DNA of 55,514 nucleotides from positions 1 to 55,514 of the forward strand of contig JBNLBN010000003.1 in the NCBI GenBank assembly GCA_050303335.1, written 5' to 3'. Position 1 is the first letter of the stretch. Every line of letters begins with the position of its first letter. This DNA comes from Candidatus Micrarchaeia archaeon (GTDB taxonomy: Archaea > Micrarchaeota > Micrarchaeia > Anstonellales > Bilamarchaeaceae). Below are positions 3,252 through 16,550 of this stretch, in pieces. The notes under the pieces were generated by a model, which searched no databases, had not been told where the DNA came from, and worked only from the letters and a program-made list of their open reading frames with translations. Made by a program: the position numbers and the translations under genes.

Positions 3252-3860
3252 ATGACTTATGAATTAGAAAAATTGCCCTATGGATATGATGCTCTGGAAC
3301 CTTACATTGACGCAAAGACTATGGAGATACACCACGACAAGCACCACCAGGGATATGTGAACAAGCTTAACGCAGCAGTTGAGAAGCACCCGGAATTGTT
3401 TGAAAAAACAGTGGATGAATTATTGAAGGACTTAAATGCGGTGCCTGAAGACATTAGAAACGCTGTCAAGAACACTGGGGGGGGTACCTCAAATCATAAT
3501 TTGTATTGGAATACAATGAGAAATGGTGGAGGTGGGGAAGCCCAAGGGGAACTTGCAGATGCCATAAAAAAGGAATTTGACACGTTTGACAGTTTCAAGG
3601 AAAAATTCTCGAAAAACGCCATGTCACTCTTTGGTTCAGGTTGGACATGGCTCGTCACTTCAGCTGGAGATCTTAAGATAATGAATCTTCCTAACCAGGA
3701 CAGTCCATTGAGTTTGGGAATGAAGCCAATTCTGGCAATTGACCTTTGGGAACATAGTTACTATTTGAAACACACCTCGAACCGGGCAGGTTACATAAGT
3801 GATTGGTGGAACGTCATAGACTGGCAGAAGGTCGGAGAACTATACAAAGAAAGCTTATAG
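3252..3860 (+). CDS. sod: Fe/Mn superoxide dismutase
   Basis: LPYGYDALEPYIDAKTMEIHHDKHHQGYV, and DLWEHSYYL with the C-terminal metal ligands. An alternative GTG start lies at 3243. Confidence 0.95.
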   Translation: MTYELEKLPYGYDALEPYIDAKTMEIHHDKHHQGYVNKLNAAVEKHPELFEKTVDELLKDLNAVPEDIRNAVKNTGGGTSNHNLYWNTMRNGGGGEAQGELADAIKKEFDTFDSFKEKFSKNAMSLFGSGWTWLVTSAGDLKIMNLPNQDSPLSLGMKPILAIDLWEHSYYLKHTSNRAGYISDWWNVIDWQKVGELYKESL

Positions 3861-4655
3861 ATTTAACCAGTCGACTAAATATTTTTCCTTTTTTGATTTT
3901 AGTTTTATCGTGGTAATATAATCAAAGAACAATCTTACAGAATTTTTTTTATAAATCCTAAGATGGTAAGAGGTTTTTCTGTTAGTAATCGGATTGGATT
4001 TCTGTATCGAGTAATATGATTTTATTTTGAGAGCATTTAACAGGATACCCTTTATTATTTCCAAATGGCGCTTATTTGTATTAGTAATATCCAAGCAGAT
4101 CTTAGGAGTTTTTCTGCATTCGTCATTAATTATTTTGACACATCCTTCAGCATCAAAGAAACCTTCCACGAGATACAGAGATGAAAGAGTATCAAATTTA
4201 CCAATAAGTCCATTAATGAGATTATGATCGCTACGAGCAACCCTGAAAAGCTCGAAAAGTTCATAATTATTGATTTTGACGATCCAGACATTCTTGCGCC
4301 TTATGAGATAGGGTTTTGCAATAGTCCCAGTGCAACAGTGAAGCATTTTTGAAAACTTAGAAGCAAATTCGTATTCACCTGTAAGGATTACATAATTATT
4401 TGTCTTTTTCCATTTATACAAACAACCGTCTCCAAGAAGTGCGCCTAAAACATAAAGCAATTCTTTGCAGATAATTATTTTGCCTTTTCTTCCATAAGGA
4501 CAATGAGATAGGTTATACCAGGTATATAAAGTCCCTGCGGGGATACCAAATTCTGAATTTATCTTATCAACAATAGTTTTCCTTGGACTCCCTTCTTTTT
4601 TAAGTTCAATGAATCTATCAAATGCCTCCATCCGGTATTCACGGTTCCGTCGCAT
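3855..4655 (-). CDS. Free-standing double-motif LAGLIDADG homing endonuclease-like protein with an N-terminal HTH
   Basis: Two LAGLIDADG motifs (LGALLGDGCL and LVEGFFDAEGCV) about 100 aa apart. The N-terminus has an HTH-like segment (IVDKINSEFGIPAGTLYTWYN). The gene is strikingly AT-rich and overlaps the sod 3' end by 6 nt, convergently. Confidence 0.8.
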   Translation of the reverse strand: MRRNREYRMEAFDRFIELKKEGSPRKTIVDKINSEFGIPAGTLYTWYNLSHCPYGRKGKIIICKELLYVLGALLGDGCLYKWKKTNNYVILTGEYEFASKFSKMLHCCTGTIAKPYLIRRKNVWIVKINNYELFELFRVARSDHNLINGLIGKFDTLSSLYLVEGFFDAEGCVKIINDECRKTPKICLDITNTNKRHLEIIKGILLNALKIKSYYSIQKSNPITNRKTSYHLRIYKKNSVRLFFDYITTIKLKSKKEKYLVDWLNL

Positions 4656-4790: not shown

Positions 4791-5051
4791 ATGGTCAGGA
4801 AGGAAGAAATCGATAAAATAAAGGAATGGTGCGAGAAGACCAAGGCAGAAAGGAACAGGATCTATGTCCTTGAGAGGAACCCGTTCAGGGACGAAATTGA
4901 ATGGACAAGGAGGTTCATCCTTATCGAGATCGACAGGCCCAAGGAAGTCGCATCAAAGAACAATCTCGTATATGATTCTACGACCAGGACGCTCTGGGAG
5001 TACATGAACAGCGACTGGAGGAAGGTTGAACCGGATATCCGGATCAGCTAA
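4791..5051 (+). CDS. Hypothetical small protein (86 aa)
   Basis: Clean ORF with charged, plausible composition. No recognised motif. Confidence 0.4.
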   Translation: MVRKEEIDKIKEWCEKTKAERNRIYVLERNPFRDEIEWTRRFILIEIDRPKEVASKNNLVYDSTTRTLWEYMNSDWRKVEPDIRIS

Positions 5052-5082
5052 CTATTTAAAGAAAATCTCCGATTTGTACCCC

Positions 5083-7749
5083 ATGCAAAGATCGATGACA
5101 GAGGTCAAAGTCGCCTCCATGCTTGATACCGTCCAAAAAAACGAAAAATTCTGGAGCTCGGTTCTTGTCTTCCTTGCAACACTGTTCCTTGTTTCAACAT
5201 TCCCATTCTACCCGATATATGTGGTGCCTGTGATTGCTCTTATTGCAGCTGTAATCGCATACAGGTTGCCCCCCGTCGGCCTCATAGTCGGATTCTTCCT
5301 TGCGCTTTTTGCAGTGATTTACCAGTCTGCTGTCTTCGGATGGATATACCTGGTCCTGCTCTCGCTGATCATGTTCGAGGCATTCAGCAACTGGAGGATA
5401 ATATCCGTACTGGTCATCCTTATCCTTGCCCCGTTTGCGCTCTCCGGACTTCCATTCATTGGCTGGGTAACCATCCTCGGGATGGCACTATCAGCACTGC
5501 ATTTCGGATCAAAGAAGAGCATCCTTGTGTCACTGCCGTCCGTATTTGCAATACTGCTCCTTTCATCAGTTTGGCTCACAGACAACAGCGCATATCTGCC
5601 GCTGGACCTGGATCTCTACAAACCAGGGGCAGCTGCATTGCAGATCGAAAAAAGCCCTGTTGCGATAATGGGCGTTGTCCCTGAGATCGTAAAATCCCTA
5701 GGGACGTTCCTGAGCCCGAACAATCTTTCAACGATATGGACATCATTCGGCTGGTTCTTCAGCAATGCGATGACGCTTGCAACAGGCGACTCGCTGATCC
5801 TGCAGCTTATCTCATGGGGAATTGCCCTCTACCTGCTTGGTTACCTTCCGGGCATGCTCAAGAAAAGGGCGCAGAGCATCTCGGCCCTGGCGCTGCTCAT
5901 CGTAATAGTGGGAAATTATGCGATCGGGCTGATCTATGGCACCCTGATGAGATATGAGTTCATGGGAGGAATAATCTTCTCGATAATTGTCCTTGTGATA
6001 ATGGAACATGTAGGATGGAACATCAGCAGGGAATCGCAGATCCAGAGATCGGACAGGATGAAATCATACGGCAAGTTCGGAATGTCCGACATGTCGCTTG
6101 GAAAGGGCGAGAAGTCGATGGACGATGTAGGCGGTTATGAGGATGTTAAAAGGGAACTTCGGGATGCGATCATGCTTCCGCTTGAACGAAAGGAGATCGC
6201 ATACACCTACGGTATAAAGCCTCCTGCGGGAATACTCCTGTTCGGCCCTCCTGGTACCGGTAAGACAATGCTAATGCGCGCACTTGCAAAGGAGCTGAAA
6301 TACAACTTCATCGAAGTGAAATGTTCGCAGATACTTTCGCAATGGTATGGCGAATCGGAAAAGAACGTTGCGGAGATATTCGACAATGCGAGGAAGAACT
6401 CTCCTACCGTGCTGTTTTTCGATGAGATCGACTCCCTGGCAAAAAGAAGGTCGGACAGCGCCCATGACACAGTAGGCCCGAGGGTATTGTCCGAGCTGCT
6501 CCAGCAGATCGACGGCGCGAACAAGGCGAAGGGCACTGTGATGGTAGTCGGTGCGACCAACCTACCCAATGAGATAGATCCAGCGTTGCTTAGACCTGGA
6601 AGGCTTGACAAGATAATCTACATGAACCTTCCAAACGAGACCGCAAGGAGGAAGATCTTCGAAGTGCACCTGAAGGGGCTGCCGATACAGGATCTGGACT
6701 TTGAGAAGCTCGTAAAGAAGACGAACAGGTTCTCAGGAGCCGACATAAATAACGTGGTTGTCGAGGCAAAGAGGCTTGCTGCAAAGGAGGCAAGCACCAG
6801 CGGCAAGATAGTCCCGATATCCATGGATTACATAATGAGGATCATCAACAATGTGAAGCCAAGTACAGGAATCAGCCAGCTTGAAACCTATGAGAAATTC
6901 AGGCTTGATTACGAGAGAAGGACCGGGTCCGAGGTCAAGCTCACCAAGAAGAAGGAGGTCAGCTGGGAGGAGGTTGCAGGTCTTGACGATGTTAAGGATG
7001 CACTTCTTGAATCAATACAGCTTCCTCTTCTCCATGAAAAGGAAATGGAACAGTACGGAGTGAAACCAAGCAAGGGAATCCTGCTTTTCGGCCCTCCTGG
7101 TACAGGTAAGACGCTTATTGTAAAGGCAGCTGCATCAGAACTGGATGCCTCCTTCCAGAACCTGAGCGCCGCGGATGTGATGAAAAAAGGATACGGCCAG
7201 GCAGTGACGATAATCAAGGAGACATTCAACCGCGCAAGGGAGAATACACCTGCACTTATATTCGTTGATGAAATTGAAACGTTTGCGCCTGCCCGGGGAA
7301 TGGGTTCGAATGAGATCATAGGGCAGTTCCTTACCGAAATGGACGGCGTTACTGGTTCGAAGGGGGTCGTTGTCATTGCGGCAACCAACAGGCCGAACAT
7401 GATGGATCCGGCAATAATGAGGCCTGGAAGATTCGACAAGATATTCTACATACCGCCTCCGGACGTGCATGGAAGGAAGGAAATCTTCAGGATACACCTT
7501 GGAAGGTTCGCTGATGATGTCAATCTGGACGTCCTTGCAGCAAAGACCCCGGGATTCAGCGGCGCAGACATAGCATCGATCTGCCAGTCAGTCAAGATGA
7601 AGGCTCTGAAAAAGAAGATCAAGGGCAATGAAGAGAAGATATCCAACGATATGATCGTGGAAGTGATAAAGACCAGGAAGCCGTCGATCACTGAGAGCCT
7701 TGTCCGGGAATACGACAAGTTCCTCAAGCAGTACGGGGAGAGGAAATAA
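5083..7749 (+). CDS. Polytopic-membrane N-domain fused to a tandem AAA+ (CDC48/VAT-like D1-D2) ATPase
   Basis: About 330 aa of successive hydrophobic helices come first. D1 follows, with GILLFGPPGTGKTMLMRALA, VLFFDEIDSL and pore loop WYG. D2 follows, with GILLFGPPGTGKTLIVKAAA, LIFVDEIETF and pore loop GYG, ending with GFSGADI. I chose ATG 5083 because the track start at 5026 overlaps the preceding ORF. Confidence 0.9.
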   Translation: MQRSMTEVKVASMLDTVQKNEKFWSSVLVFLATLFLVSTFPFYPIYVVPVIALIAAVIAYRLPPVGLIVGFFLALFAVIYQSAVFGWIYLVLLSLIMFEAFSNWRIISVLVILILAPFALSGLPFIGWVTILGMALSALHFGSKKSILVSLPSVFAILLLSSVWLTDNSAYLPLDLDLYKPGAAALQIEKSPVAIMGVVPEIVKSLGTFLSPNNLSTIWTSFGWFFSNAMTLATGDSLILQLISWGIALYLLGYLPGMLKKRAQSISALALLIVIVGNYAIGLIYGTLMRYEFMGGIIFSIIVLVIMEHVGWNISRESQIQRSDRMKSYGKFGMSDMSLGKGEKSMDDVGGYEDVKRELRDAIMLPLERKEIAYTYGIKPPAGILLFGPPGTGKTMLMRALAKELKYNFIEVKCSQILSQWYGESEKNVAEIFDNARKNSPTVLFFDEIDSLAKRRSDSAHDTVGPRVLSELLQQIDGANKAKGTVMVVGATNLPNEIDPALLRPGRLDKIIYMNLPNETARRKIFEVHLKGLPIQDLDFEKLVKKTNRFSGADINNVVVEAKRLAAKEASTSGKIVPISMDYIMRIINNVKPSTGISQLETYEKFRLDYERRTGSEVKLTKKKEVSWEEVAGLDDVKDALLESIQLPLLHEKEMEQYGVKPSKGILLFGPPGTGKTLIVKAAASELDASFQNLSAADVMKKGYGQAVTIIKETFNRARENTPALIFVDEIETFAPARGMGSNEIIGQFLTEMDGVTGSKGVVVIAATNRPNMMDPAIMRPGRFDKIFYIPPPDVHGRKEIFRIHLGRFADDVNLDVLAAKTPGFSGADIASICQSVKMKALKKKIKGNEEKISNDMIVEVIKTRKPSITESLVREYDKFLKQYGERK

Positions 7750-13651: not shown

Positions 13652-14817
13652 AATGAGAAATTATCGAATATTATTTTTCCTTCTTTTATTACTGTTTTTG
13701 CTTTTCCCTTGAATCTGAAACCCTCGAACGGGGACCATTTGCATTTCGTCTCGAATAATCCGCCGTCCACTTTCCATTCCTTATTCGGGTCAATGATTGT
13801 TATGTCTGCATCATAGCCTTCTTTCAGGCGGCCTTTTCCTTTCAGGTTGAATATTTCTGCCACTTTGGATGTCATCCTGGATATCACCCAGTGGCGGTCG
13901 GCAATGCCCCGATTGCACAGATCCAGCATTGCGGCAAGGGAGGTCTCAAGCCCCGGGAACCCGGCCGCTCCTGCCTCCTTGTCTTCGACAGTGTGGGGTG
14001 CATGGTCTGTTGCTATGCAGTCTGCAAGTTCCATGGCAGACTGGAGCATCAGCTGTTTCTGGGGCGATTTGAGCGTCGGGAACACGTTCTTCATTCTTCC
14101 AAGCCTCTCGAAGTCCCTTGTTGAAAGCAGGAGGTGATGGGGCGCAACCTCGACTGTGATGTTAGGGTGCTGCTTTGCCATCGTGATCTCCTTTTTCGTT
14201 GACGCATGTGCGATATGGAGCCTCCTCCCATTTGCAGCCCTGTAGACCTGCTCCTGTATCCTGTAGGTTTCCTCGAGATTCTTTTCCTCGTCTTCCAGGT
14301 CTGAGCATGCATGGAGAACAATGGGCCTGTCCCTGGGAAATTCCTCGAAATGCCTTTTTGCAAATGATTCGTCAATCAGCATGTTGCCGGTCGTCTTCCC
14401 GAGATATATTTTCAGGGAATCGGGATCAGCAGCCCTGACATCGGAATAGTTTGTCGCCGTAGCGCCGAAATGGAATAGCACATTGCATATGGCCTTCTTT
14501 GAAAGCTCCTTTTTCTCATCCAGCCGCTCTTTTGTGACTGTCGGCATTGGATTGTTCGGCATGTCGATTACTGTGGTGAACCCTCCTGCAACAGCAGCAC
14601 GTGAACCTGTGTAGAAATCCTCCTTGCTGGTAGCACCCGGCTCTCTCAGGTGCACATGCGGATCGATTAGGCCTGGTGTGACCAGCATGCCTTTTGCATC
14701 GATCATTTCATCTCCGGAAAGATTATCTCCCACCTCTGCAATTTTACCATCCAGGATTCGAATATCACGGTCCAAAAATGCATTGTCGATAAAGGCTTTT
14801 CCGCCTTTAATGATCAT
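13648..14817 (-). CDS. pyrC: Dihydroorotase (amidohydrolase superfamily)
   Basis: GLIDPHVHLREPG, HIAHAST, TDHAPH and an overall DHOase layout. An allantoinase/hydantoinase relative cannot be fully excluded. Confidence 0.8.
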   Translation of the reverse strand: MIIKGGKAFIDNAFLDRDIRILDGKIAEVGDNLSGDEMIDAKGMLVTPGLIDPHVHLREPGATSKEDFYTGSRAAVAGGFTTVIDMPNNPMPTVTKERLDEKKELSKKAICNVLFHFGATATNYSDVRAADPDSLKIYLGKTTGNMLIDESFAKRHFEEFPRDRPIVLHACSDLEDEEKNLEETYRIQEQVYRAANGRRLHIAHASTKKEITMAKQHPNITVEVAPHHLLLSTRDFERLGRMKNVFPTLKSPQKQLMLQSAMELADCIATDHAPHTVEDKEAGAAGFPGLETSLAAMLDLCNRGIADRHWVISRMTSKVAEIFNLKGKGRLKEGYDADITIIDPNKEWKVDGGLFETKCKWSPFEGFRFKGKAKTVIKEGKIIFDNFSF

Positions 14818-16550
14818 ACGATCCTTCCGCCTTCTGTGATGAAGACGACGACCTTGAGGATAGTGACTATTATTGTCTTGAAGATCTTGTAGAGAAGCTT
14901 GTTGAATGACTGGTTTCTTGAATTGATTGTTCCGAGGAGGTCCTTGAATGCCTCCTTTTCACCAGGCCCCATCTTGGATTCAGTAACCTTCTTGTGCTCC
15001 TTGCCGTCTATGATCGTCACTTCCTCCTGCTTTCCGATCTGCTTTTTTGCCTGCTCATACCAGGGCGGAAGCGAAGATCGCTTCTCTGCAATCGCCTTTA
15101 CGAAATCTCCGAGTGTAAGGGACCTCTGCTTTACCTGCTTCTTTGCAACCTCGACAGCGGCATCCCTCTCCATTCCCTGCGAGGTCATGAGATTGTCGGC
15201 CTTCTTCTCTATTGCCTTGAAAGCCTCCCTCCACGGTATAGTCGCTGCGCCGTCCACTATCGCCTTGTGGTCGGCCGATGCATAGCCCATTGTAGCAATG
15301 CCAAGTGCCCAGAATGGAATGAATGGGGCCAATGGCCTTTTCTTCGAATGCATCTTCATTATGGCTACTCGCGAGGAATAATCAGGTTCAGGAATGTAAA
15401 TTGTCTTGCTGAAACGGCCGGATCGCCTGAGGGCAGGATCAACATCCCACGGAGCGTTGGTCGCTGCGATGATAAGAACGTTTGAATTGTTGGCCTCGAC
15501 ACCGTCCATCTCGTAAAGCATCTGGTTGACGGCCATCTTCATGTACTGTTGGCCCTCTCCCCCGTCTCTCCTTCCACCGATAGCATCAACTTCATCGAAG
15601 AAGAGTATGACTGGTGAATTCTTCCTCGCCATCTCAAATACTTTGTGAATGTTCTTTTCTGTGTTACCGACATACATATCGAGAAGGTCTGAAAGCTTCG
15701 CGTTCAGGAATCCTGCTCCGCACTCTCCTGCTGCGGCCTTGACGATGTATGTCTTTCCGCAACCTGGAGGCCCGTACATGAGGATACCTCCTCCTCCAAG
15801 CTTCCCGTACTTCCTTGCAAGGTCAGGGTTCCTCATCGGATAGACGACAGCCTCGCGAATCTCTTCCTTCATCTTTTTCATTCCGGCTACGTCTTCGAAT
15901 GTCATGCTTGGCTTGGAGAGCATCTTGATGTCTGCTGATCCTCCTTCTCCGCCCTTTCCGTCCTGGTCCTTCTTGGCCTTTGCACCTTCAAGATGAGTTT
16001 TTGCCTCAGTCAGGTCAGGATTCAGTTCAAGCGCCTTCTCATAGTCTGCCACTGCAGAGCTGATCGATCCTGCATATTCATTAGCGAGTCCCCGAAGATG
16101 ATATGCCTCTGCAAAATCAGGCTTGAGCTTGATCACTTTCGAAAAATCCTCGACCGCCTTTTCGTATTCTTCCATCGAGGCATATGATAGACCCCGGTTG
16201 TAGAAAGCCTTCAGATAATTAGGATTTAGCGTGATTGCCCGGTCATAGTCCTTCACTGCGTTCTGGAAGTCCTGCTTCCTGTAGAATGCGTCTCCCCTGT
16301 TGTTGAATATGATCGGGTTCTGGGGATCGAGTTCCATTGATTTTGTGTAGTCTGCAATGGACTTGTCGAAATTCTTGAGCTGGTAATAGGAAAGTGCCCT
16401 GTTGAAATATGCCTCGGAAAACACTGGATTGAGGAGAATCGCCATGTTGTAATTTTCGATTCCCCGGTCGTAGTCTCCCTTCTCGTAATAGTCATTCCCC
16501 ATCTGATAATACGTCTTTGCATCTGTAGGGTTTGGTTTTCTCTCAGCCAT
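14814..16550 (-). CDS. TPR-repeat + single AAA+ ATPase with a C-terminal hydrophobic tail anchor
   Basis: About 5 TPR repeats (AKTYYQMGNDYYEKGDYDRGIENYNMAILLNP and similar). AAA core with GILMYGPPGCGKTYIVKAAA, ILFFDEVDAIGG, pore loop YVG and ATNAPWDVDPALRRSGRF. The extreme C-terminus LLYKIFKTIIVTILKVVVFIT is a predicted TM. ATGA overlap with pyrC. Confidence 0.85.
   Translation of the reverse strand: MAERKPNPTDAKTYYQMGNDYYEKGDYDRGIENYNMAILLNPVFSEAYFNRALSYYQLKNFDKSIADYTKSMELDPQNPIIFNNRGDAFYRKQDFQNAVKDYDRAITLNPNYLKAFYNRGLSYASMEEYEKAVEDFSKVIKLKPDFAEAYHLRGLANEYAGSISSAVADYEKALELNPDLTEAKTHLEGAKAKKDQDGKGGEGGSADIKMLSKPSMTFEDVAGMKKMKEEIREAVVYPMRNPDLARKYGKLGGGGILMYGPPGCGKTYIVKAAAGECGAGFLNAKLSDLLDMYVGNTEKNIHKVFEMARKNSPVILFFDEVDAIGGRRDGGEGQQYMKMAVNQMLYEMDGVEANNSNVLIIAATNAPWDVDPALRRSGRFSKTIYIPEPDYSSRVAIMKMHSKKRPLAPFIPFWALGIATMGYASADHKAIVDGAATIPWREAFKAIEKKADNLMTSQGMERDAAVEVAKKQVKQRSLTLGDFVKAIAEKRSSLPPWYEQAKKQIGKQEEVTIIDGKEHKKVTESKMGPGEKEAFKDLLGTINSRNQSFNKLLYKIFKTIIVTILKVVVFITEGGRIV

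Follow-up and report, generated by a model that had tools for sequence, protein, structure and literature searches.

A Cdc48-related tandem AAA+ ATPase joined to a ten-helix membrane module and conserved in Micrarchaeota

In a 55,514-nucleotide stretch of DNA from a Candidatus Micrarchaeia archaeon (contig JBNLBN010000003.1 of assembly GCA_050303335.1, called the window below), we found a gene whose product carries a polytopic membrane module followed by two AAA modules and no protease, and this architecture is real and conserved. The best explanation of the sequence is that the product would be a membrane-integral type-II classical AAA+ unfoldase, used by Micrarchaeota as a housekeeping protein. 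By analogy with known systems, we give an about even chance to the proposal that it acts as a hexameric membrane-protein extractase with its D1 ring facing the membrane. The first-pass annotation had not recognised the architecture as a described family, and our literature searches likewise found no description of a ten-helix module combined with tandem AAA modules. The features of the locus are collected in Table 1.

Table 1. Features of the gene and its immediate surroundings, in coordinates of the window.
Feature	Position	Strand	Basis
86-aa orphan gene, directly upstream	4791..5051	+	locus comparison, AF2
Candidate archaeal TATA box TATTTAAA	5053..5060	+	read from sequence; centre ~26 nt upstream of ATG 5083
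Whole gene, predicted 888-aa membrane-embedded tandem AAA+ ATPase	5083..7749, stop included	+	ORF list, translation
Ten-helix membrane module, residues 1-317	5083..6033	+	AF2, Foldseek, Pfam/NCBIfam, K/R distribution
FPFYP motif, after TM1, predicted outer face	5200..5214	+	alignment; cross-architecture pFYP column
YQS motif, TM3 end, predicted outer face	5320..5328	+	alignment; cross-architecture YQ column
FGSKKS motif, cytoplasmic loop TM6-TM7	5503..5520	+	alignment; K/R distribution
~72-aa predicted outer-side region, residues 165-236	5575..5790	+	AF2 secondary structure, alignment, topology parity
Conserved 27-aa linker TM10-D1 (…MKSYGKFG.SD.S…)	6034..6114	+	alignment
AAA module D1	6115..6921	+	Pfam PF00004 + lid, motifs, invariant columns
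D1 Walker A GPPGTGKT, residue 388	6244-6267	+	
D1 pore loop QWYG, residue 420	6340-6351	+	
D1 Walker B VLFFDE, residue 443	6409-6426	+	
D1 sensor-1 TN	6556-6561	+	
D1 RPGR Arg fingers	6592-6603	+	
AAA module D2	6943..7746	+	Pfam, motifs
D2 Walker A GPPGTGKT, residue 670	7090-7113	+	
D2 pore loop KGYG, residue 702	7186-7197	+	
D2 Walker B LIFVDE, residue 725	7255-7272	+	
D2 sensor-1 TN	7384-7389	+	
D2 RPGR	7420-7431	+	
C-terminal YGERK	7732..7746	+	alignment; C-termini of 55 proteins, 58 loci

The gene lies in a single uninterrupted ORF on the plus strand (5026/5083..7749), and translation from the ATG at 5083 gives 888 aa. The candidate TATA box suggests that the gene may have its own promoter and a leaderless mRNA. 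It had been asked at first reading whether the fusion of the N-terminal region and the AAA part was produced by a chimeric assembly or a frameshift. No point in support of this was found. Across 58 Micrarchaeota species genomes, all untruncated loci had the membrane motif in frame with the two Walker A motifs, full-length orthologues from independent sources formed more than 120 clusters, and contigs of an independent mangrove metagenome spanned the junction between the TM and AAA parts without indels (4992-7115, ~99% identity). An artefact of this kind is thereby excluded. The fusion was universal in the 58 genomes, and the fused family was restricted to Micrarchaeota, which are tiny, reduced, symbiotic and host-dependent archaea.

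Kyte-Doolittle windows gave about ten hydrophobic segments between residues 22 and 310, and the AlphaFold model of the membrane module was confident (pLDDT 89.5, pTM 0.86), all-helical and crossed the membrane ten times. The model and the distribution of Lys and Arg support a predicted topology of ten TM helices with both the N- and C-terminal ends in the cytoplasm. The earlier estimate was roughly 9-10 TM helices in about 330 aa before the AAA part; AlphaFold and the K/R distribution support ten, in a module of about 317 aa. The module alone had no match in either Pfam or NCBIfam, residues 1-340 in the context of the whole protein had no Pfam match, and a Foldseek search of the model against PDB returned noise only (best E 0.27, TM score at most 0.2). 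ABC-exporter TMDs, at E 0.27 and a TM score of 0.16, were part of this noise.

Conserved residues were found on both predicted faces of the module. In the family alignment, P44 of the FPFYP motif was invariant with F42 and Y43 conserved in at least 90% of sequences, and Q81 of the YQS motif was invariant. F141, G142, S143 and S146 were invariant in the TM6-TM7 loop, which had a mean of 2.0 K+R. Residues 165-236 contained predicted amphipathic helices and conserved N168, A170 and P173. In the linker that follows the module, K331, G333 and D336 were invariant and K327, G330 and F332 were conserved in at least 90% of sequences; by AlphaFold and the K/R distribution, TM10 ends on the cytoplasmic side, where the linker also lies, and D1 follows only 27 residues further on. 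Such conservation suggests that the linker may serve for coupling and not as a loose tether.

Pfam identified AAA (PF00004) and AAA_lid_3 domains, two of each, and no peptidase domain in the whole protein. The Walker A Lys, the Walker B Asp-Glu, the sensor-1 Asn and both Arg fingers were invariant in both modules among 28 orthologues. Two complete AAA modules with intact Walker motifs and no protease domain had already been proposed for this gene, and Pfam, the motifs and the invariant columns bore this out. The pore loops had been read as WYG in D1 and GYG in D2, which is true of this copy; the D2 loop is degenerate (K-G-Y-G/T), with K-G-Y-T as the family consensus. D2 was 39% identical to D1, and the identity of the AAA part was 61-86% across the more than 120 clusters. 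The best 120 homologue matches of the AAA part contained only the same fused family and no soluble relative. In relatives, inteins were found in the D1 pore loop and in Walker B. Inteins favour functionally critical sites. A free-standing LAGLIDADG gene in the window (3855-4655) was considered as a relic of the intein endonuclease of the family, and was rejected since it had no similarity to the intein-bearing orthologue P0011.

The closest solved relatives were the substrate-threading unfoldases p97, Cdc48 and VAT (PDB sequence matches, E ~1e-117 to 1e-135), with which the protein shares two tandem classical AAA modules with lids and complete catalytic motifs. The first-pass annotation had described the protein as a CDC48/VAT with its N-domain replaced by a membrane domain. 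The order of a polytopic module and then two AAA modules stood, and the ten-helix module, all-helical in the AF2 model and with no Pfam or NCBIfam match, is found where Cdc48/VAT has the double-psi-barrel and beta-clam N-domain. As a whole, however, the description was an oversimplification, and both modules were D2-like. The first AAA module scored 225.8 bits against p97 D2 and 167.2 against p97 D1, and the second scored 224.8 bits against VAT D2 and 177.9 against VAT D1, so that each was ~50-60 bits better against the D2 than the D1 ring of p97/VAT, and the bit scores do not pair the first module with Cdc48 D1 and the second with D2. The NCBIfam CDC48 model (TIGR01243) gave 508.7 bits, below its cut-off of 802.65. 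As both modules are nearer to Cdc48 D2 than to D1, a simple swap of the N-domain does not account for the protein; the membrane domain is, moreover, not peculiar to the AAA fusion, as described below.

We also considered whether the protein belongs to a described family of membrane AAA proteins, namely a protease-less FtsH, Msp1/ATAD1 or the archaeal MBA. FtsH is alike in concept, because its N-terminal membrane anchor puts a hexameric AAA ring under the membrane and it extracts membrane proteins. However, FtsH has an M41 protease, one AAA ring and two TM helices, whereas the window protein has two Cdc48-type AAA rings, ten TM helices and no M41 domain, and its FtsH_fam score was 400.6 against a cut-off of 600. 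Msp1/ATAD1 and Bcs1 are also membrane-anchored AAA motors without a fused protease, of which Msp1 extracts and Bcs1 translocates, but each has one TM helix and one AAA module and belongs to another AAA clade (the meiotic clade for Msp1/ATAD1, with its TM helix N-terminal). The best 60 PDB matches were all Cdc48, p97, VAT, AFG2, NVL or Rix7; FtsH, Msp1/ATAD1 and Bcs1 were not among them. MBA proteins reportedly carry one AAA module, with an outside domain between two TM helices. As classical AAA proteins of archaea anchored in the membrane, they resemble the window protein, and it would be set apart from them by its two AAA modules and ten helices. The 2012 survey in which MBA was named covered 81 archaeal genomes, to our knowledge with few or no Micrarchaeota among them. 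That a cluster of archaeal AAA proteins has been named MBA ('membrane-bound AAA'; PMC3493965, citing Serek-Heuberger et al. 2009), and that NCBIfam gave sub-threshold FtsH and PAN scores, speaks for membership in a known family; the FtsH_fam score, the PDB matches, the two AAA modules with ten TM helices and the restriction to Micrarchaeota speak against it, and we regard such membership as very improbable. In plants, a Spaf-like protein of the Cdc48 family no longer has the N-domain and has acquired a membrane anchor (PMC5070193). It is, however, eukaryotic, and it is anchored through one TM region at the C-terminus and not through a polytopic module.

For the extractase, the steps can be proposed from these relatives. 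The protein would form a hexamer like Cdc48/VAT, and the D1 ring with its canonical WYG pore loop would lie just beneath the membrane, in the position that the AAA ring has in FtsH. The protein would grip cytoplasmic ends or loops of membrane-associated proteins, draw the substrate out of the bilayer by threading it first through D1 and next through D2, and let it go in the cytoplasm in an unfolded state. The motor would be held in place by the membrane module, which would probably also choose the substrates or sense a cue in the membrane. The ERAD retrotranslocon (Hrd1/Der1) with Cdc48 also combines a polytopic membrane part and a Cdc48-type double ring pulling proteins from the membrane. In ERAD the parts are separate proteins, whereas here they would be in one chain; the module has no fold similarity to solved membrane proteins, and no ubiquitin-like system is linked to the gene. 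Counted in favour of the extractase were the intact ORF, the complete motifs and invariant catalytic residues, p97/Cdc48/VAT as the closest solved relatives, the conserved cytoplasmic linker, the universal fusion, the conservation of the AAA part across the clusters, the housekeeping neighbours, the inteins, and the M-Y-R or H-Y-R tails of some orthologues. Counted against it were the lack of a conserved protease, proteasome or adaptor neighbour, the lack of HbYX in this copy, the degenerate D2 pore loop, and the presence of the module on cyclase, KaiC-like and HTH-like proteins, a distribution that a sensor explains no less well than an anchor for recruiting substrates does.

This last point came from an exhaustive search of 1.84 billion proteins with the A2 profile, in whose alignment the window protein is row 1. 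Only 69 representatives of the membrane module were found. Besides the tandem AAA proteins, the module was present on a single AAA module and, in other archaea, N-terminal to a class III cyclase domain (PF00211), a KaiC/RAD55-like ATPase (PF06745) and a weak wHTH domain; the distant matches were weaker, with whole-library E values of 1e-5 to 1e-7. The FPFYP motif was common to nearly all compared architectures with the module, YQ was kept across them, and a related form of the linker FG motif occurred in distant carriers. We named it the PFYP-YQ ten-helix module, defined as a polytopic module of ~300 aa with PFYP after TM1 and YQ ending TM3; the window protein has all of these. Its occurrence on AAA, cyclase, KaiC-like and wHTH proteins indicates from sequence that it is a portable membrane module, and possibly a sensor. 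This distribution marks it as a new family of membrane domains in archaea, one that merits its own entry in Pfam.

This opened a reading that the first-pass annotation had not raised, a signal-gated unfoldase, in which the module mainly senses a membrane or extracytoplasmic cue and switches the AAA motor on and off, so that specific, possibly soluble, regulators are remodelled or destroyed by a one-component 'sensor-unfoldase'. Varied outputs behind one membrane module are a pattern of prokaryotic membrane sensor modules. PFYP and YQ, both predicted to face outward, recur in the modules in front of the PF00211, PF06745 and weak wHTH domains, 317 aa with invariant outer-face residues exceed the need of an anchor, and the linker to D1 is conserved. 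However, the distant matches are weak, the module shows neither an evident ligand site nor a cofactor motif, such sensors are not known to have AAA unfoldases as outputs, and quality control would account equally well for a gene found across the phylum in housekeeping synteny. We consider this reading rather unlikely. The same tentative standing applies to its broader form, in which PFYP-YQ would be an unrecognised archaeal membrane sensor on cyclase, KaiC-like, HTH and AAA outputs, cue-gated in Micrarchaeota, with the HbYX-tailed lineages handing substrates over to the proteasome. If true, regulated unfolding would join the known forms of signal output, and the membrane fold would also be new.

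Another alternative is a translocation motor. Its conduit would be built or gated by six membrane modules, and the AAA rings would push or pull polypeptides to the other side of the membrane, whether for export or for import; in concept this is Bcs1 or an ERAD/SELMA-type channel and Cdc48 in one chain. A hexamer would hold sixty TM helices on the same axis as a threading motor, an arrangement that would permit a conduit, and Micrarchaeota are host-attached DPANN archaea, whose host-dependent lifestyle such a motor could serve. On the other hand, Foldseek found no similarity to a solved channel or translocon in PDB, the module on cyclase and HTH proteins, which are not motors, argues against a dedicated conduit, and no secretion or cell-contact genes were conserved nearby among 57 loci. 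We judge a translocation motor improbable.

The extractase, or a function in feeding a protease as had also been suggested, is a plausible proposal, and the neighbourhood was of the housekeeping kind (DRG GTPase, SOD, H+-PPase, SepF, ScpA). Recurrent neighbours in the 57 loci were an 86-aa gene, H+-PPase, a methyltransferase, aromatic amino-acid genes and DRG GTPase; no conserved protease, proteasome or adaptor gene was found among them. The 86-aa gene was upstream on the same strand in 22-25 loci, often with a gap of 30-90 nt. Its protein was found in Micrarchaeota only, with 64-90% identity, and may possibly be a partner of the AAA protein. A known AAA adaptor (UBX- or ubiquitin-like) was tried and rejected for it, because the AF2 model was confident (pLDDT 94.4), yet it matched no PDB fold and no family, NCBIfam included.

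The C-terminus differed among orthologues. Y884, G885, E886 and R887 were invariant in the 28-sequence family alignment, and the window protein ends in …QYGERK without HbYX. Among the C-termini of 55 proteins and of 58 loci, about 8 orthologues had an acidic or proline-rich tail and then M-Y-R or H-Y-R, an HbYX-like end as in many archaeal Cdc48. The orthologue tree, in which the D2 part is missing in rows WINDOW, L044 and L056, was used only to place these tailed clades. The M-Y-R tail matches the HbYX pattern given for archaeal proteasomal ATPases, [LVIMGAPFYW][FY]x at the extreme C-terminus (PMC3493965). HbYX-like tails are a hint of proteasome docking, and the orthologues with M-Y-R probably dock on the 20S proteasome. 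With YGERK at its end and no protease domain, this copy could pass substrates to a protease only indirectly or through an unknown contact. The HbYX-tailed orthologues would be a membrane-tethered proteasome activator.

As far as we know, FtsH is absent from archaea, and the removal of proteins from archaeal membranes is poorly understood. Cdc48 is the sole AAA subgroup present in all archaea surveyed (PMC3493965). Throughout a phylum, a Cdc48-type double ring is retained in a form covalently integrated in the membrane, by way of a module without a known family or a solved fold. If it is an extractase, the protein would be a compact single-chain model of membrane-protein dislocation, with the motor and the membrane part in one polypeptide, and an attractive target for cryo-EM.

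An ORF scan of the window detected a single ORF without interruption for the tandem AAA protein, and translation from the ATG at 5083 gave 888 aa. P0002, the database copy of this protein, is 884 aa long and starts four codons downstream, at 5095 instead of 5083, beginning at the second in-frame Met (MTEVKV…). Because the TATTTAAA box is centered about 26 nt upstream and the protein shares the start MQ[KR][ST]M with its closest relatives in the alignment, we considered ATG 5083 a reasonable start. The position of the box also suggests that the AAA gene may be transcribed from a promoter of its own, as a leaderless mRNA.

Hydropathy analysis placed about ten hydrophobic segments within residues 22-310. 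Pfam identified AAA domains and AAA lid domains, two of each, found no peptidase domain in the protein, and returned no match for its first 340 residues, while the top NCBIfam model was CDC48 with 508.7 bits, under the cut-off of 802.65. Together with the ORF and the sequence motifs, these results indicated that the first-pass annotation, which described a polytopic membrane part with two intact AAA modules and no protease, was correct.

Table. Genes and sites in the window (nt), motif positions in the 888-aa protein, and membrane module motifs consisting of residues invariant or near-invariant in alignments
Feature	Position	Strand	Remark
LAGLIDADG endonuclease gene	3855-4655	-	Free-standing; between sod and the 86-aa gene
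86-aa orphan gene	4791-5051	+	Directly upstream of the AAA gene
TATTTAAA box	5053-5060	+	First base two bases past the stop of the 86-aa gene
Tandem AAA gene	5026/5083..7749	+	
Site equivalent to the intein insertion	~6340-6360		No intein in the window copy
TPR-AAA gene	14814-16550	-	
Walker A	residues 388 and 670		GPPGTGKT
Walker B	residues 443 and 725		VLFFDE; LIFVDE
Pore loops	residues 420 and 702		QWYG; KGYG
FPFYP	after TM1		Predicted outer face
YQS	end of TM3		Predicted outer face
FGSKKS	TM6-7 loop		Cytoplasmic
LLSS	in TM7		
N-x-A-x-x-P	after TM7		
DS..LQ	before TM8		

The same fusion was found in many relatives. The membrane part alone matched 54 clusters with 35-66% identity over that part. 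The proteins were 876-916 aa long, apart from intein-bearing ones of about 1,400 aa. All members with a name came from Micrarchaeota or Bilamarchaeum, and the annotation was merely "AAA family ATPase" or "VCP-like ATPase". When the AAA part was used as the query, at least 120 clusters with the same fusion were obtained with 61-86% identity, some new and some identical to those above; the few shorter proteins among the matches listed were located on short contigs. In species-representative genomes we found 58 loci, labelled Micrarchaeota, Micrarchaeia or Bilamarchaeaceae except for a few labelled "Candidatus ainarchaeum" or plain "archaeon". Wherever the locus was neither masked nor truncated at a contig end, the FGSKKS motif and two Walker A motifs were in one frame, and contigs from an independent mangrove metagenome tiled 4992-7115 with about 99% identity and no indels, including the TM10 end and the linker. 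A chimeric assembly or frameshift, against which the first-pass annotation had advised a check, is therefore an extremely improbable origin of the fusion.

In both AAA modules, D1 and D2, the Walker A Lys, the Walker B Asp-Glu, the sensor-1 Asn and both Arg-finger arginines were invariant across 28 orthologues, as were W421 and G423 in the D1 pore loop and G703 in the D2 loop. The top solved relatives were Cdc48, p97 and VAT; next came AFG2/SPATA5, NVL and Rix7. D1 scored 225.8 bits against p97 D2 versus 167.2 against p97 D1, D2 scored 224.8 bits against VAT D2 versus 177.9 against VAT D1, and the two modules were 39% identical to each other. Since both modules are D2-like by these per-domain scores, the protein is not simply Cdc48 with a swapped N-domain; the proposal of a CDC48/VAT protein with a replaced N-domain held for the membrane part and the tandem AAA modules, but not for the simple swap. 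A D2-type module was probably fused to the membrane module and later duplicated.

In the alignment, the linker of 27 residues that connects TM10 to D1 had a conserved motif, MK.YGKFG..D.S, which suggests that the linker makes a specific contact and is not a loose tether. Orthologues of about 1,080-1,400 aa carried an intein with a LAGLIDADG-type endonuclease, inserted directly behind the pore loop of D1 (WYGE|S…HN|SEKN). The intein-bearing relatives were P0011, P0013, P0018, P0029, P0031, P0047, P0049, P0051, P0056 and P0064, the last of which (1,912 aa) had another intein immediately ahead of the D1 Walker B. A comparison of the window's free-standing endonuclease (Pfam PF14528, PF00961) with the intein endonuclease carried by these members showed no similarity.

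AlphaFold, supplied with an alignment of 40 membrane parts, modelled the membrane module as all helical (pLDDT 89.5, pTM 0.86). Lys and Arg were concentrated at the N-terminus (mean 3.0), around residue 61 and in two loops, TM6-7 (2.0) and TM8-9 (3.0), and were nearly missing in loops 1-2, 3-4 and 5-6. The model and this pattern agree, and fit a predicted topology of ten TM helices with both ends of the module in the cytoplasm and the 72-residue region 165-236 outside. The module matched no Pfam or NCBIfam family, and no Foldseek hit in the PDB improved on E 0.27 or TM 0.2.

A profile of the module gave just 69 matches among all 1.84 billion representative proteins, including the ~900-aa family. 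The matches also included more distant two-AAA forms, such as BCS90610.1 from the Micrarchaeota genome ARM-1, and single-AAA forms from Anstonellaceae, which would fit the fusion-then-duplication scenario. The Thermoplasmata proteins P0111 and P0115 combined an outside domain, the module and one AAA module. In other proteins the module was joined to a class III cyclase domain (PF00211; P0110, P0113), a KaiC/RAD55-like ATPase (PF06745; P0117, P0119, Nezhaarchaeales), or a coiled coil with a weak wHTH (P0114, P0120). The E-values of these non-AAA forms were modest for the whole library (1e-5 to 1e-7), but we accepted them as homologues because the PFYP, the Pro before TM3, the YQ and the Trp positions were kept in all of them in the cross-architecture alignment. 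The presence of the same PFYP-YQ module on quite different cytoplasmic domains in archaea therefore indicates an undescribed portable membrane domain family.

Placement of a membrane module N-terminal to varied cytoplasmic outputs is typical of sensor or input modules. The main rival to an extracting unfoldase is a signal-gated unfoldase with the module chiefly as a sensor, which we consider somewhat unlikely; a translocation motor is less likely than that, and improbable. Membership in an already described membrane AAA family is very unlikely. Archaeal membrane-bound AAA (MBA) proteins have a single AAA module, and their two TM helices flank an outside domain; this description sets them apart from the present architecture. 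The MBA cluster was named in PMC3493965, which cites Serek-Heuberger et al. 2009, and a plant Cdc48-family protein was reported to have no N-domain and a C-terminal TM region (PMC5070193). The literature covered, which took in few subscription journals, did not describe any fusion of a polytopic N-terminal module to a Cdc48-like double ring.

The family ending YGER[KR] was invariant. About eight species loci and several metagenomic clusters had an extra acidic or proline-rich tail (orthologous loci L003, L037, L043, L044, L046, L050 and L058; homologues P0023, P0045 and P0047-P0049), ending in GMYR, EMYR, MYG, SHYR or THYR. The HbYX pattern was applied to archaeal proteasomal ATPases in PMC3493965, where the motif was shown to be required for Cdc48 to activate the 20S proteasome; the M-Y-R tails match the pattern, and H-Y-R is not a strict match. 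In the family tree, the tailed proteins fell into a well-supported clade of four, a clade of two and one lone branch. The large 31-member clade (support 100/97), which holds the window protein, contained none of them. The C-terminus of the window copy thus lacks a canonical proteasome-docking motif.

Among 57 loci, with neighbors identified by Pfam, no recurrent protease or proteasome gene was found near the AAA gene. The 86-aa gene, located upstream in the same orientation, recurred at 22 of the 57 loci, as did a H+-pyrophosphatase and a SAM methyltransferase, while aromatic amino-acid genes recurred at 13-18 loci and a DRG GTPase at 14. The 86-aa gene was frequently 30-90 nt from the AAA start, and its homologues were found only in Micrarchaeota (64-90% identity). 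The protein had no family matches, and its AF2 model (pLDDT 94.4) had a fold without a PDB match. The protein is a candidate partner of the AAA protein, for which adjacency in about 40% of genomes is no proof. The window also encodes a second membrane-associated AAA protein of 578 aa. It has one AAA module and five TPR repeats, and its residues 553-571 are hydrophobic (KD19 = 2.0), as would be expected of a tail anchor.

We concluded that the protein is real, phylum-wide and uncharacterised, and that its domain architecture is a new one for a known type of machine, based on a membrane module likewise undescribed. Beside the observed architecture, topology signals, intact motifs, conservation and kinship to threading unfoldases, we give an even chance to a membrane-integral hexameric unfoldase that extracts membrane-associated proteins. 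The hexamer would be embedded through the membrane module, which would act as an anchor and also as a selector or sensor, with the D1 ring beneath the membrane. Membrane-associated proteins would be threaded through D1 and D2 into the cytoplasm, where they might be handed over to a protease.
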